The notes under the pieces were generated by a model. The model did no database searches, was not told the DNA's origin, and saw nothing but the letters and a program-made list of their open reading frames with translations. From the NCBI GenBank assembly GCA_963662545.2, contig CAXXLL010000002.1, positions 2,304,001-2,368,000 on the forward strand: a stretch of DNA of 64,000 nt, in the 5' to 3' direction. This DNA comes from Gammaproteobacteria bacterium. Its GTDB lineage: Bacteria; Pseudomonadota; Gammaproteobacteria; Ga0077536. Below are positions 23,495 through 26,804 of the stretch, piece after piece (position 1 is the first letter of the stretch; each line of letters starts with the position of its first letter). Both the position numbers and the translations under genes were made by a program.

Positions 23495-23555
23495 ACGCGA
23501 GTATGTACCTGAGTAAACCCTAGAAACAGGGCATTTTTGCGTCAAACAGCCGCCG

Positions 23556-23726
23556 TTACTCGTCGTCGTCTGACTTTTTCTTGTCGGAATCGGGCCAGCC
23601 GTCAGAAGGGCGTGGCTTCTTCAATGCCTCGCTTACGGCATCCTTCCAGTCACCATTGATCTTTACGCGTTCCTCTTTTGGGCCGCGCTTCGATATTTTT
23701 CCCGACTGATCTTTTTTTACTACCAT
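23556..23726 (-). CDS. Small 56-aa passenger protein
   Basis: Manual translation MVVKKDQSGKISKRGPKEERVKINGDWKDAVSEALKKPRPSDGWPDSDKKKSDDDE; below the ORF-track cutoff. Confidence 0.55.
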   Translation of the reverse strand: MVVKKDQSGKISKRGPKEERVKINGDWKDAVSEALKKPRPSDGWPDSDKKKSDDDE

Positions 23727-23729
23727 ATG

Positions 23730-23780
23730 TTGAGATCTGCAGTAAGAGCGTTTACTATCTCGTAGTAGTTAGTTTACTAC
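23730..23780 (+). promoter_or_regulatory. sigma70 promoter and palindrome for the passenger operon
   Basis: TTGAGA(23730-35)-17 nt-TACTAT(23753-58), followed by GTAGTA-N7-TACTAC (23762-80). Confidence 0.55.
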
Positions 23781-23791
23781 ATAGCAGTGAT

Positions 23792-24616
23792 ATGGCCAAA
23801 ATCAAAGCAGTGGACGAGTCCGGAGGCGCAAAATCAAAGCGGCGCGCGCGGCAGCGTTCTGGCACTGCGTTTCCCTACTATGGGCTCAGTCAATCCGTAG
23901 AGGTCGCGAACAAAATACGATCTCAAGGAGGGGGCGTATGTAGCCGTGACCAACTTGCACATTTCCTGAATTATTCTACTACTCGTAGCGGGGCTTACCT
24001 AACTCGGATGAGCGCCGCTAAGATGTTTGGCCTGATCTCGATGTCCGGAGAAACCGTGTCCATAACGGAGCGAGCGCAAAAAATTCTCGTCCCGGTACTT
24101 CCGTCAGACTCGAACGATGCCAAAATAGAAGCATTCCTGGCTGTGGAGCTTTTCCGCCGAGTTTACGATGATTTTTATGGCAAGAAACTGCCGCCGAAAG
24201 TTGGCACCAAAAACCTTTTCGAGAACATATACAAAATTACGCCCGACAAGATCCAGACAGCTTTACGCGCATTTTACGACTCTGCGGAGTTCGCAGGGTT
24301 TTTCCCGGATAACGGCAAAACGCGGCTTATTAAGCCCATCACAGCGGTAGAGCCCGGGACTTTAGAGCCAAAAGATGCCGTTGATGATGACCCTGGTACA
24401 GACCCGCCGGCAGATCCTCCTCCGGATAAACGAAAGCATGGCGGCAGTGGTAGTGGCGAGGGTCCACCGCCCGGTATACATACGGCAATAGTCGGTCTGC
24501 TACGCGAACTTCCGCCGGCCGGGTCCGATTGGCCCGCCACCAAGAAAGAACGATTTATGCAGGCATTCAGGGCGACTATTGATTTCATCTACCCGGAACA
24601 GGAGGAGCTACAATGA
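23792..24616 (+). CDS. Uncharacterised 274-aa passenger protein (possible winged-helix N-terminus)
   Basis: Long ORF with N-terminal FPYY..S...SRDQLA..L.YS...SGAY..R.SAA..FGL, a Pro/Gly/Asp linker and a short C-terminal helical domain. Confidence 0.75.
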   Translation: MAKIKAVDESGGAKSKRRARQRSGTAFPYYGLSQSVEVANKIRSQGGGVCSRDQLAHFLNYSTTRSGAYLTRMSAAKMFGLISMSGETVSITERAQKILVPVLPSDSNDAKIEAFLAVELFRRVYDDFYGKKLPPKVGTKNLFENIYKITPDKIQTALRAFYDSAEFAGFFPDNGKTRLIKPITAVEPGTLEPKDAVDDDPGTDPPADPPPDKRKHGGSGSGEGPPPGIHTAIVGLLRELPPAGSDWPATKKERFMQAFRATIDFIYPEQEELQ

Positions 24617-24715
24617 GGAGGGTTTAAGGGCTGGCTCGGCGGCCCGGTCCAAGCGTCAGCGGTGGTTCAACTTGTGAGAAGCTTGCCACCGCTGACGGCC
24701 CGGGACTACATCCAT

Positions 24716-24816
24716 GCGGACGTGGTGGAATTGGCAGACACGCCGACTTTGGGGGTCGGTGGGGGTTGATCCTTTGACCAGGGGACCCCGTGCAGGTTCG
24801 AGTCCTGTCGTCCGTA
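24716..24816 (+). tRNA. tRNA-like gene: Leu-type body, TGG (Pro) anticodon, 32-nt variable arm
   Basis: Acceptor GCGGACG/CGTCCGT with A73; D arm GTGGAATTGGCAGACAC; anticodon arm CCGAC-TTTGGGG-GTCGG; T arm GCAGG-TTCGAGT-CCTGT. Confidence 0.8.
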
Positions 24817-24854
24817 TACCATTAATCCGCTGCTGAAAGCTTGGCAGAAAAACG

Positions 24855-25856
24855 TCAGCCAAGCAATCGCCGAACCATCGGCAGATTAGTCGATACTGGT
24901 TCAGCATAGTAAAGCCGCTTCCCATTTGATGCCTTGATAGCCGCCGTAACCCTCTCTCCATCCTCAAGCTCGCGGCGGTTGAACCGAAATTCGAACTCAG
25001 CCATGTAGCGGTGCAGATGCTTACGGCTGACACTGTGATAGACGCCATTCAGACCGCGCTTGAAGATGCTGAAAAAGCCTTCTACCCGGTTCGTGGTTAC
25101 GTCGCCCCTGGCGTACTCGCGGGCCTTATGCTTCACCGTTTCGTGACCGCCCTTGAATTCCGCACCGATACCCCGATAACCACTGTGTTCATCGGTCATA
25201 ATCCGGGAATCGGGATGGACATGCTCCCGGATAGCGGCCTTTAACGTCTTACCAGTCACATCGGGTATAACCCTAGTGCGGACTTCGCCGCCACGTTGAA
25301 CCAGGGCGACGACGGGCTGTTTGTCGCCATGGCCCCGCTTGCTCTTACCTTTGTATCGGGGCTTTCCCCCAACGAAAGTTTCATCGACTTCAACGTCGCC
25401 GTTCAACTGGCCGTCATACGCTGGTGCCATAGCGAACCGGATACGGTGCAGCAGGAATAGGGCTGACTTGTAGGAAATTCCAGTCTGGCGGTGAATCTCA
25501 AGGGCCGACACGCCTTTCTTGGACGTGGCTGCACGCCAGAACCCGAAGCACCAATGACGCAGTTCAATCCGGCTGTCCTCAAACACGGTGCCGGTGCGGA
25601 CAGTGAATTGCGCTGTAAACTTAGCTCGCGCACAATCCCGGCAGCGCCAGCGAAAGTTCTTTTGCCGTGCGCCAGTCTTGTTATCTTGCATCTGGTAGAC
25701 ATTTTCGCTACCGCAACGGGGGCAGCAAGGATTCTCGCCCCAACGCTGCTTCTCTATGAACTCAACCGCAGCCTTCTCGTCGGCGCAGGCTTTTGGAACA
25801 GCCTTGATTACTGGGTCGTTCTTGGTGGAGCGGTTTTGAACTTTTGGCTTACTCAT
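24855..25856 (-). CDS. IS1595-family transposase
   Basis: N-terminal CPRC...CRDC zinc ribbon, FTVRTGTVFE, EVDETFVGG, IMTDE and TNRVEGFFSIFKRG...YH.VS.KHL.RY..EF.FR.N. Confidence 0.95.
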   Translation of the reverse strand: MSKPKVQNRSTKNDPVIKAVPKACADEKAAVEFIEKQRWGENPCCPRCGSENVYQMQDNKTGARQKNFRWRCRDCARAKFTAQFTVRTGTVFEDSRIELRHWCFGFWRAATSKKGVSALEIHRQTGISYKSALFLLHRIRFAMAPAYDGQLNGDVEVDETFVGGKPRYKGKSKRGHGDKQPVVALVQRGGEVRTRVIPDVTGKTLKAAIREHVHPDSRIMTDEHSGYRGIGAEFKGGHETVKHKAREYARGDVTTNRVEGFFSIFKRGLNGVYHSVSRKHLHRYMAEFEFRFNRRELEDGERVTAAIKASNGKRLYYAEPVSTNLPMVRRLLG

Positions 25857-25862
25857 ACATCA

Positions 25863-25891
25863 ATTGTATATACAAATTATCCTTTCGTCAA
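25863..25891 (-). promoter_or_regulatory. Transposase sigma70 promoter (leaderless)
   Basis: Minus strand TTGACG-17 nt-TACAAT-6 nt-ATG; the palindrome TTGTATATACAA overlaps the -10. Confidence 0.7.
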
Positions 25892-26040
25892 GTATAAAGT
25901 TAATTACTATGTGCTTGTCGCTAAAGGGCGGTATCGCCGATCTGCAACAAATTTTTACATATATTGTTCCTTTTTAGTCTATATTTTGTATATACAGGGA
26001 TGTAGAATGTTGCGGAAATGACCTCAAGGATGTATATGCA

Positions 26041-26334
26041 TTGCCGCTAGAGATTAGTAACGGAGTACGTCGAAAGCTCGCCAGTAAAGAGCCGCCAGTC
26101 ACGGAGGCTGAAATTGTCGAATGCTTCGCGAATAGATTGAGTAAATACCTCTATGACGTTCGGGAGGATAACAAAACTAACCCGCCCACCAGATGGTTTG
26201 TTGCTGAGACAGATTATGGAAGAAAGCTCAAAGTTGTGTTCATGAGCATTGGGGACAATATCGTGATCAAAACAGCTTTTGAACCAAATCCTGATGAAAT
26301 ACGTATATACAACAAGTTCAGCCAGCCTACTTAG
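26041..26334 (+). CDS. BrnT/RelE-like toxin (putative)
   Basis: 97 aa with VTEAEIVECF.N, WFVAET..GRKLKVVF and IKTAFEP; upstream of a CopG-like gene. Confidence 0.7.
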   Translation: MPLEISNGVRRKLASKEPPVTEAEIVECFANRLSKYLYDVREDNKTNPPTRWFVAETDYGRKLKVVFMSIGDNIVIKTAFEPNPDEIRIYNKFSQPT

Positions 26335-26357
26335 TAATCTCGGAGAGAGAGAACCAC

Positions 26358-26708
26358 ATGAATGAAACCACGAAAATTGAATCAACTGAGGAAGCATGGG
26401 AGTCCGGACAGCTCGGGCGCGACGAAGCTTACGCTCACGTTTTCGAGAATGAACAAGAAGACGCACTCGATAAAGCTCTAGAACTCCAAATGATCTCCAT
26501 ACGACTTCAAAAATCTCTCATAGAAGATTTCAAGCTAATTGCCAAATTGCATGGCCTTGGGTATCAGCCGCTCATGCGTCAGATATTGACGCGGTTTGCC
26601 GATTGCGAGAAAAAGCTACTTCTTAAAAAGTTCGTAGCTGACCAAGAAAAAATGGAGGCAGCGGAGCAATTGACCGATAATGAGGAACCAATTGCCTCAC
26701 ACGGATAG
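26358..26708 (+). CDS. BrnA/CopG (RHH) antitoxin (putative)
   Basis: Acidic N-terminus followed by ISIRLQKSLIEDFKLIA...GLGYQPLMRQIL. Confidence 0.75.
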   Translation: MNETTKIESTEEAWESGQLGRDEAYAHVFENEQEDALDKALELQMISIRLQKSLIEDFKLIAKLHGLGYQPLMRQILTRFADCEKKLLLKKFVADQEKMEAAEQLTDNEEPIASHG

Positions 26709-26727
26709 CCTCAAACGATTTCAATAT

Positions 26728-26752
26728 AAACCCGCTTCGGCGGGTTTTTTTT
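26728..26752 (+). terminator. Rho-independent terminator of the TA operon
   Basis: AAACCCGC-TTCG-GCGGGTTTTTTT. Confidence 0.85.
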
Positions 26753-26804
26753 CACCGCCAGAAACCCGTCATAAGGGTTTACTCAAGTACATACTTCCGT
26801 TTTT

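Follow-up and report, generated by a model that had tools for sequence, protein, structure and literature searches.

An IS1595-family element carrying a conserved class II tRNA with a leucine-type body and a proline anticodon that matches the codon use of its transposase

The zinc ribbon of IS1595-family insertion sequences (IS) is present in all groups except IS1016, and the ISNha5, ISNwi1 and ISPna2 'plus' groups, as set out by Siguier et al. in 2009 and in ISfinder, reportedly carry passenger genes. Members of the family share 8-bp target-site duplications (TSDs), a single transposase and a zinc finger (PMC8101967). Bacterial tRNAs of hybrid identity are known as well. The tRNAProX and tRNAProA of Streptomyces and Kitasatospora miscode experimentally and are toxic at high expression (PMC10404621), and the allo-tRNAs, encountered in metagenomes near toxin-antitoxin (TA) systems and a transposon-related open reading frame (ORF), are in some cases active in E. 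coli (PMC5389517). Here we describe a 3304-bp element of the IS1595 family, bounded by terminal inverted repeats (TIRs) and a TSD, at 23496-26799 of a 64,000-nucleotide stretch of DNA from a Gammaproteobacteria bacterium (assembly GCA_963662545.2, contig CAXXLL010000002.1, positions 2,304,001 to 2,368,000), hereafter the window. Three parts recur in the lineage to which it belongs, namely the transposase, P56 (a basic protein of 56 aa) and a class II tRNA whose body is leucine-type and whose anticodon is a proline one; the proline codons of the transposase follow that anticodon. Two features carry this finding; the element also holds P56, a 274-aa protein (P274) followed by a leader RNA, and a candidate TA pair (Tox97 and Anti116), all listed further below.

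24716-24816, plus strand: class II tRNA with a tRNA-Leu body and anticodon UGG (Rfam tRNA, 45.8 bits)
24855-25856, minus strand: IS1595-family transposase of 333 aa; this gene and the tRNA converge, with 38 nt between them

A tRNA of chimeric type had been read here from the letters by the initial annotation, and the Rfam tRNA model RF00005 matches at these positions (45.8 bits, gathering score 29, E 1.1e-7, model positions 1-71), although ARAGORN reports no tRNA within the window, probably because of the 30-nt variable arm. The tRNAs of related loci score similarly with the same model (L026 46.7 bits, L006 53.4, L007 51.3). The window tRNA has a 7-bp acceptor stem with G1.U72, discriminator A73 and no encoded CCA; its D loop reads GGAAUUGGCAGAC and its T loop UUCGAGU, U48 precedes the T stem, and A14, A15 and G18G19 are present. 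The anticodon loop UUUGGGG, with the proline anticodon UGG and G37, lies one base away from the loop UUUAGGG of the host tRNA-Leu(UAG). Among the 50 host tRNAs the tRNA-Leu genes match it best, with a nearly identical D arm and loop; a tRNA-Pro(UGG) is already present in the host. In the host genome ARAGORN also reports a 95-nt 'tRNA-???' with a two-base anticodon (G000:C3:2603809-2603903), probably a false call.

In E. coli, leucyl-tRNA synthetase (LeuRS) recognizes A73, A15-U48, G18G19 and the tertiary pairs that join D loop and T loop, and uses neither the anticodon nor the variable arm, while proline identity depends on G72 and G15-C48 besides G35, G36 and A73 (PMC9976931). The window tRNA carries the leucine set, namely A73, A15-U48, G18G19 and the tertiary pairs G18:U55, G19-C56 and U54:A58. 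Its anticodon is UGG and not a leucine one (NAG or NAA), so that it is leucine-type by its body and not a tRNA-Leu by decoding. From the proline determinants it has G35, G36 and A73 and lacks G72 (C1-G72), G15-C48 and a short variable loop. Nor does it show the 12-bp acceptor branch of the allo-tRNAs with its 8/4 or 9/3 arrangement: in the lineage alignment the acceptor stem of 7 bp and the T stem of 5 bp are paired in 98-100% of cells. The leucine tertiary set is not kept in every relative: L004 has C55, and G55 occurs together with an altered D loop in L007, L057 and L067. In the latter three (L007:1868-1952, L057:2358-2458, L067:4456-4543) the T loop reads UGCAAAU or UGCAAAC and the D loop has AG or CAG in place of GG, which may reflect covariation of the G18-U55 tertiary pair or decay.

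The cloverleaf is maintained by compensatory change. In an alignment of nine lineage tRNAs 98.9% of the cells pair and 14 of the 20 pairs are compensated, a result reached by none of 500 shuffles, and controls with slid pairing give 34-51%; a first set of five tRNAs had given 99% pairing and 13 of 20 compensatory pairs. The fold is therefore under selection. A73 occupies the last position in all nine.

We traced the lineage in viral contigs by two routes. A DNA pattern (Leu-type D arm plus UUUGG loop) found nine loci, in five of which (two identical) a transposase 46-68% identical to that of the window adjoins the tRNA; P56 is present in two and P274 in none. The transposase alignment alone found 20 loci. 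A covariance model built from the nine tRNAs detects a Leu-type tRNA at 64-100 bits in nine of these 20 (three on contigs already seen, six new) and none in L064/65, L072/73/76, L077 or the five loci with 36-39% transposase identity. All nine anticodons are proline ones, UGG in eight and AGG in L068, and they are kept across transposases 47-68% identical. Because these nine tRNAs were found without using the anticodon and all have NGG, the anticodon is under selection too. P56 homologues occur in eight of the 20 loci. Together the two routes give 28 viral loci (9 + 20, one shown identical) on 25 contigs, as L063, L071 and L074 share the contigs of L058, L056 and L060. In none of the 28 do the surrounding 2.5-3.5 kb of tRNA or transposase contain P274 or the TA pair, and since the tRNA goes with the transposase and P56, it is not loose cargo of the TA module. 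Across the lineage the variable arm ranges from 15 to ~44 nt, and the tRNA is usually convergent with the transposase over a gap of ~30-40 nt.

The link between tRNA and transposase extends to codon use. Eleven transposase genes come with a UGG tRNA, and of their 111 proline codons 45 are CCA (40.5%), as compared with 193 A-ending codons out of 1575 when the seven remaining four-fold boxes are counted (12.3%; odds ratio 4.9, Fisher p 8e-13). Six relatives that lack the tRNA show no CCA excess (19.6% versus 15.7% A-ending, p 0.53), and the AGG element L068 has no CCA and four CCT among nine proline codons. The excess is concentrated at two columns of the transposase, represented in the window by Pro21 (25794-25796) and Pro320 (24897-24899). 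The N-terminal proline, in the motif IPxACADE, is CCA in every one of the nine UGG elements where this motif occurs; L068 uses CCC there. The C-terminal one, in GKRLxYxxP, is CCA in seven elements, CCG in one and replaced by leucine (CTG) in L068; the same position holds L, I, C or K in tRNA-less and distant IS1595 transposases. At these two columns 16 of 18 codons are CCA, against 0 of 27 at three conserved-proline columns, and the synonymous sites of the codons neighbouring the two columns vary freely. That the transposase codons are co-adapted to the tRNA is, on these alignments, a strong description and not a proof. That the proline codons track the anticodon points to a role of the tRNA in the element's own translation. 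A broader version, a generally 'encrypted' transposase with proline codons wherever other family members have leucine, was considered and dropped, as only the C-terminal column fits it; the version restricted to the two positions was kept.

The boundaries of the element are as follows.

23488-23495, no strand: left TSD copy TTTTTTTA, also the T tract of the flanking terminator-like hairpin 23469-23488
23496-23521, plus strand: left TIR, starting CGCGAGTATGTACC (repeat search)
26774-26799, minus strand: right TIR, starting CGGAAGTATGTACT on the minus strand (repeat search)
26800-26807, no strand: right TSD copy TTTTTTTA, its last three bases forming the mazG stop codon on the minus strand

The repeat search gives TIR arms of 27 nt, 89% complementary, at 23495-23521 and 26774-26800, and places the 8-bp TTTTTTTA TSD within a 12-nt exact direct repeat; read directly from the sequence, the ends at 23496 and 26799, CGCGAGTATGTACCTGAGTAAACCCT on the left and CGGAAGTATGTACTTGAGTAAACCCT on the right (reverse complement), agree at 23 of 26 positions. 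ISfinder defines the ISNha5 subgroup by its end sequence and a signature of catalytic residues; the outermost bases here are CGCGAG and CGGAAG. Relatives end in CGGRAGTATGTAC, and CGG starts both their ends and the right end of the window element. In a genome of the same genus (G002, locus L040) the site is empty: the hairpin is followed by T10, an A and the 3' end of mazG with no element in between, and the locus is 84% identical to the window in the left flank and 91% in the right. The 26-bp TIRs and exact 8-bp TSD that the initial annotation had recognized are hence confirmed by direct reading, by the repeat search and by the empty site. Among the relatives, CGGRAGTATGTAC-type inverted repeat (IR) ends together with exact 8-bp TSDs are seen in L026, L064, L066, L067, L069 and L070, and L004 also has its own TSD. 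Because of the TIRs, the TSD, the empty site and the relatives with their own 8-bp TSDs, the element is real and mobile. The transposase matches DDE_Tnp_IS1595 (PF12762, 150.9 bits, cut-off 27), Zn_ribbon_IS1595 (PF12760, 41 bits, cut-off 25.4) and NF033547 (199.4 bits, cut-off 75), so that the catalytic domain, the N-terminal zinc ribbon, the TIRs and the 8-bp TSD of the IS1595 family are all in place. We conclude that the element is intact, that it transposed recently and that it belongs to a lineage of its own within the IS1595 family. It is single-copy in its genome, by a search at the DNA level and a P274 search at the protein level; the same genome (G000) holds 14 other, distant IS1595-type transposase matches (35-39% identity), none with P274.

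The insertion spared both neighbours, as had been proposed. On the right, the mazG ORF (26805-27593, minus strand, Pfam MazG) is left intact, its stop codon lying inside the right TSD copy, and on the left the terminator-like hairpin 23469-23488 keeps its T tract through the left copy. The further suggestion that this tract ends a small RNA gene holds as far as the hairpin is concerned; the gene itself was not confirmed, with no Rfam match at E up to 5 in 23300-23495. This spacer between folE2 and mazG, which ends in the terminator, is 84% identical in the congener, and in two further genera of the family a match remains over the final 50-100 nt, a degree of conservation compatible with a conserved small RNA or a terminator.

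The remaining features of the element lie on both sides of the transposase, whose internal position (24855-25856 within 23496-26799) agrees with the earlier reading.

23556-23726, minus strand: P56, 56-aa basic protein (ORF), a conserved accessory gene of the IS lineage
23730-23758, plus strand: promoter-like site upstream of P274, with TTGAGA and TACTAT 17 nt apart (consensus match only)
23792-24616, plus strand: P274, 274 aa; a winged helix at the N terminus is followed by a helical domain, a disordered linker and, at the C terminus, a conserved helical motif
24617-24715, plus strand: structured leader RNA from the P274 stop to the tRNA, with a perfect 12-bp hairpin 24654-24665 / 24686-24697
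25863-25891, minus strand: promoter-like site upstream of the transposase, with TTGACG and TACAAT 17 nt apart (consensus match only)
26041-26334, plus strand: Tox97, 97-aa candidate BrnT-like toxin, a lead with no family assignment
26358-26708, plus strand: Anti116, 116-aa candidate antitoxin of BrnA/CopG type (weak Pfam match)
26728-26747, plus strand: terminator-like hairpin with a T tract after the TA pair (hairpin scan)

P56 has no match in Pfam, NCBIfam, PADLOC or PHROG. Its homologues adjoin related transposases in L004, L007, L026, L056, L058, L063-L069 and L071 (tblastn), and in our own reading of the alignment they share the letters GDW..A...AL.KKRP..GWP. The TA pair resembles BrnT/BrnA pairs in its order, with a small toxin gene first and a CopG-type antitoxin second, but neither protein reaches a curated Pfam cut-off. 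Tox97 has no Pfam match at E up to 0.01, including BrnT_toxin PF04365, and no NCBIfam match; it matches PHROG 18652 (E 1.4e-30), itself of unknown function, and among its nearest named clusters in the ESM Atlas are one that carries PF04365 BrnT_toxin on 25% of members (score 0.91) and one with DUF4258 on 25% (0.90). Anti116 matches PHROG 17810 (E 2.1e-34) and scores 22 bits with Pfam CopG_antitoxin (PF12441), below the cut-off of 28; its L004 homologue scores 27.1 bits. By sequence, neither protein has a meaningful match or a solved relative in the PDB, and the PADLOC models, searched at E up to 0.1, gave no hit for any of the cargo proteins.

All the cargo listed by the initial annotation is present: the BrnT/BrnA-like pair, the two conserved ORFs of unknown function, the structured RNA and the tRNA whose body and anticodon disagree. 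The initial annotation would have been refuted had this cargo never recurred together in related elements, and it does recur: L004 keeps the full gene order inside its own IRs and TSD TATTTATA, namely P56, P274, RNA, tRNA, a PemK-like gene, the transposase and homologues of Tox97 and Anti116, with a transposase 65% and a P274 51% identical to those of the window. These two are the only elements in which the BrnT/BrnA-like pair was seen. L007 consists of P56, P274, tRNA(UGG) and a transposase remnant, and L026 of P274, tRNA(UGG), transposase and P56. The smallest bounded element seen, L067 (~2.1 kb, with IRs and TSD CCATCGCC), is made of the transposase, the tRNA, P56 and, upstream of the tRNA on the same strand, an ORF resembling HARE-HTH (24.5 bits, cut-off 25.9); this ORF was considered as a P274 homologue, and homology is not supported (hhalign probability 0.2). 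The nearest transposases on plasmids are less than 41% identical to that of the window. Two further observations come from these relatives. L063:5761-5850 (the same contig stretch as L058:3691-3780) holds, inside an IR-bounded region, a second odd tRNA of 90 nt that ARAGORN calls tRNA-Ala(cgc), with a gene for a SocA/Panacea-domain antitoxin nearby; the body of this tRNA looks serine-type in our reading. In L056:990-2441, a gene between transposase and tRNA encodes a protein with Schlafen AlbA_2 and HATPase_c_4 domains. Eukaryotic Schlafens cut class II tRNAs, and a link to this gene is only a thought.

P274 has 68 homologous clusters, all unnamed and none with a Pfam family; in the ESM Atlas only unnamed clusters are found, one of them auto-named 'Mrr-like N-terminal domain', with DUF5343 at 0.87. 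It has no family in Pfam, NCBIfam, PADLOC or PHROG and no match in the plasmid collection. The AlphaFold2 (AF2) model (mean pLDDT 84.2) predicts a winged helix at about residues 32-91 and a helical domain at 93-168. A Foldseek search against the PDB was empty at E up to 0.001, and VIA-align pairs the protein with MarR-type winged helices (Z up to 9.4 over 64 residues). Residues 21-186 resemble 3bhw_B (Z 8.7, rmsd 3.6, 145 aligned) and BrxA 7zge_A (Z 8.1, rmsd 4.2, 151 aligned), both middling values that serve as leads only.

Scans with an 11-sequence P274 alignment gave 3 genome, 29 metagenome and 3 viral loci. Twenty-four distinct ones with sufficient sequence downstream were counted; duplicates were left out, as were L011 and L034, which are truncated, and L035, L037 and L038, which are distant. 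Five of the 24 have a full Leu-type tRNA, five a mini tRNA-like element of 68-70 nt, and six lie beside an IS1595-type transposase or remnant. Conserved non-coding sequence follows nearly every P274 gene. The window leader is the short form of this RNA ('type A'), and the pairing of its hairpin is kept in L004 and L007 with an entirely different sequence. 'Type B', in nine loci (L008:5748-5890, L014:1872-2010, L012:1984-2120 and six more), extends over ~125 nt after the P274 stop and has two covarying helices and a pseudoknot between loop and tail (columns 49-56 with 112-119), with 91.6% of cells paired and 15 pairs compensated. 'Type C', in five loci (L005:5795-5985 and four more), has two covarying helices in front of the mini tRNA-like element. 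None of these leader RNAs, in the window or in the related loci, matches an Rfam family, and the pseudoknotted RNA that accompanies P274, an uncharacterised protein of winged-helix type, is a candidate for a new RNA motif. A T-box-like pairing of the anticodon loop with CCAA/CAAA of the leader was tried and rejected; these stretches are of low complexity, and the pairing is absent in L006 and type C.

The mini tRNA-like elements (L005:5912-5979, L020:1061-1128, L029:2507-2575, L033:692-760 and L036 ~4990-5060) have a 7-bp acceptor and a normal T arm; they lack a D arm, and their 'anticodon' arm is long and irregular. All four that were aligned have G3:U70 and A73, the identity mark of alanine, and the sole Rfam match among them is a tmRNA hit at L033 693-763 (26.8 bits, below the gathering score of 47). 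The genes 3' of the P274 RNA vary: they are PemK/MazF-like in L004, L029 and L020, encode DUF1508 in six loci and have no known family in others, and in some cases (L006, L023) restriction or AbiE genes adjoin the P274 locus. In L029 and L020 the PemK/MazF-like gene comes after the mini tRNA-like element with no antitoxin gene in between. In L006, P274 and its RNA are followed by a Leu-type class II tRNA (L006:5904-5990) with anticodon UUA, which would read the stop codon UAA; a type I methylase gene lies alongside, and there is no transposase in the locus. Because P274 and its RNA are found in many contexts with varying downstream genes, they are a module of their own, placed before the tRNA in the IS lineage.

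In the window, a promoter-like site, P274, the structured leader and the tRNA follow one another as an operon-like unit of which the tRNA is the last part, and no terminator-like site lies between P274 and the tRNA. The site at 23730-23758 is the likely start of this transcript, judging by its consensus match; such sites number four in the scan versus 3.1 expected from shuffles. Part or all of the element appears in sequencing runs from eight studies (20 rows listed). Contigs of RNA libraries (two metatranscriptome runs from one study and one run guessed to be RNA) cannot reveal strand, ends or level. One of them, 24473-24813, bridges the P274 3' end, the leader and the tRNA, and others cover 24307-24659, 24700-24910 and 24591-24832, a weak hint that the region around the tRNA is expressed. 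No contig of runs X16, X17 and X20 lies on 24912-26026, that is, most of the transposase and the spacer, an absence that in contigs proves nothing; the DNA-type run X14 has pieces there.

How would such a tRNA act? Tentatively, and with a confidence just short of even, we propose that it is charged by LeuRS and inserts leucine at the element's own CCA codons. In this scenario, transcription of the unit would start at the P274 promoter, the tRNA would be freed by RNase P and by processing of its 3' end, and LeuRS would charge it by way of A73 and the D/T-loop core that the window tRNA keeps. The charged tRNA would read CCA, and probably CCG too. It would act first on the transposase of the element, where leucine at CCA would yield a protein not spelled out by the DNA; alternatively, it would at least set how well the CCA codons of the transposase are read. 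Wider proline-to-leucine miscoding of host proteins would be a side effect, limited by low expression. It is tempting to speculate further, although we consider it rather unlikely, that the element holds a private genetic-code lock, in which the transposase gene keeps CCA at the two fixed positions, the C-terminal one being leucine in other IS1595 transposases, and an active or correctly regulated transposase is made only when the element's own LeuRS-charged tRNA, reading CCA as leucine, is expressed. Here tRNA expression would depend on P274 and its leader, and transposition would be gated by a self-encoded shift in what a codon means.

Several points weigh against leucine insertion and against the lineage as drawn here. 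The codon p-values overstate the case, as the sequences are related and the columns were chosen after looking. Only the C-terminal CCA-rich column aligns with leucine in other IS1595 transposases; the other CCA columns align with hydrophilic or mixed residues, the N-terminal position may be a true proline, and four of the 12 tRNA-bearing elements have no proline at the C-terminal position (Q, H, S and L instead). Some of the tRNAs are themselves unusual. L007, L057 and L067, with G55 and the changed D loop, depart from a standard elongator tRNA, the L004 tRNA combines C55 with an 8-nt anticodon loop, and L068 and L075 have C33; by E. coli rules, G18:U55 counts for leucylation (PMC9976931). G35, G36 and A73 are in turn also determinants for prolyl-tRNA synthetase (ProRS), so that some charging with proline is possible (PMC9976931). 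Finally, L063, L068, L074, L075 and L077 have IR-like ends without matching 8-bp flanks, and the element may already be catalogued in ISfinder.

One rival takes the anticodon at its word: ProRS would charge the tRNA through G35, G36 and A73, which are strong determinants for this enzyme (PMC9976931), and the element would own a private proline tRNA serving CCA, a codon rare in GC-rich hosts, so that its CCA-rich transposase is well translated, with no miscoding at all. Codon co-adaptation fits this as well as it fits leucine insertion, the N-terminal CCA position is proline in all lineage members with the motif, and ARAGORN calls six relatives tRNA-Pro(tgg), a label that follows the anticodon only. 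However, the other proline determinants are missing (G1.U72 or G1-C72 instead of G72, A15-U48 instead of G15-C48) and the leucine identity set is retained, and a variable arm of this length would face a class II synthetase such as ProRS. The host already has a tRNA-Pro(UGG) of its own, and the conserved-proline columns avoid CCA (0 of 27), which is odd for what should be the best-served proline codon. We regard a private proline tRNA as unlikely, though not negligibly so. Under a purely structural role, the tRNA would be a signal for processing and stability, providing an RNase P site, the 3' end of the P274 transcript and a barrier between the convergent transcripts of P274 and transposase, and would not decode. 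The mini tRNA-like elements that occupy the same slot in five other P274 loci are unlikely to decode, tRNA and transposase are usually convergent over their short gap, and several relatives are nonstandard at positions 33 or 55. Yet such a role would not fix G35 and G36 in nine of nine tRNAs found without using the anticodon, nor would it yield matching transposase codons, including the exceptional AGG element with its CCC and CCT, and we hold it to be quite improbable. A captured tRNA-Leu gene in decay, with a chance A35G change and no function, would account for the single base between its anticodon loop and that of the host-type tRNA-Leu(UAG); the 14 compensated pairs that keep the cloverleaf and the proline anticodon kept across transposases 47-68% identical make this very unlikely.

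The initial annotation had joined the TA pair, P274, the RNA and the tRNA into one translation-targeting module for defence or addiction. As a rival to leucine insertion at the element's own codons, this would make the tRNA a toxic miscoding effector. With P274, its leader and the BrnT/BrnA-like pair the tRNA would make up a module for defence, addiction or stress mistranslation, and the transposon would be no more than its vehicle. P274, of a DNA-binding type in its predicted fold, would be positioned to control the tRNA operon, and its residues 21-186 are weakly BrxA-like (Z 8.1). Elsewhere P274 and its RNA precede variable small genes, PemK/MazF-like toxins in L004, L029 and L020 among them, or lie near the restriction and AbiE genes mentioned above. 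Hybrid tRNAs are toxic when expressed (PMC10404621), and allo-tRNAs are reported near TA systems (PMC5389517). The comparison of relatives does not support this proposal: the tRNA tracks the transposase and P56 and not the TA pair or P274, which are absent from the 2.5-3.5 kb around it in the 28 viral loci, and the TA pair was seen in two elements only. PADLOC recognizes none of the cargo proteins. Moreover, the transposase gene is itself rich in the codon that would be miscoded. We consider such a module improbable.

If, as we prefer, the tRNA inserts leucine, this would be a natural mobile element that rewrites a sense codon for its own gene, and a miscoding tRNA spread between genomes and phages. 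If it inserts proline instead, ProRS would be shown to take class II tRNAs even where the variable arm reaches ~44 nt. In both cases, since the long-armed forms are missed by ARAGORN and by the default Rfam filters, such genes are probably under-annotated.

Compared with the described systems, the element shares with passenger-carrying IS1595 members the DDE_Tnp_IS1595 domain with its zinc ribbon, the TIRs, the 8-bp TSDs and the passengers, here on both sides of the transposase. Unlike in those, the passenger is a tRNA that recurs through the lineage and matches the codon use of the transposase; we found no paper describing a tRNA as an IS1595 passenger or a tRNA-carrying IS1595 lineage. Like tRNAProX and tRNAProA, the window tRNA is a natural bacterial tRNA in which body and anticodon disagree. 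Theirs, however, is a proline body with Asn, Thr or Ala anticodons, encoded on the chromosome next to a special ProRS (PMC10404621), whereas the window tRNA combines a Leu-type body with a proline anticodon, has no synthetase gene beside it and sits on a transposon. The allo-tRNAs are similarly class II-like; their variable arms are long, and their anticodons stand for other amino acids or for stops, but they have 8/4 or 9/3 acceptor/T branches and serine identity, and the available part of their description mentions no link to transposase codon use (PMC5389517). The tRNAs of the window lineage have canonical 7/5 branches, A73 and a Leu-type D loop, and by these features fit neither group. Passenger-carrying insertion sequences and hybrid-identity tRNAs are each known already, and it is their combination that we did not find in the literature. 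As a transposon the element is ordinary; what makes it unusual is that it carries a conserved tRNA with a switched anticodon, linked to the transposase of the element itself.

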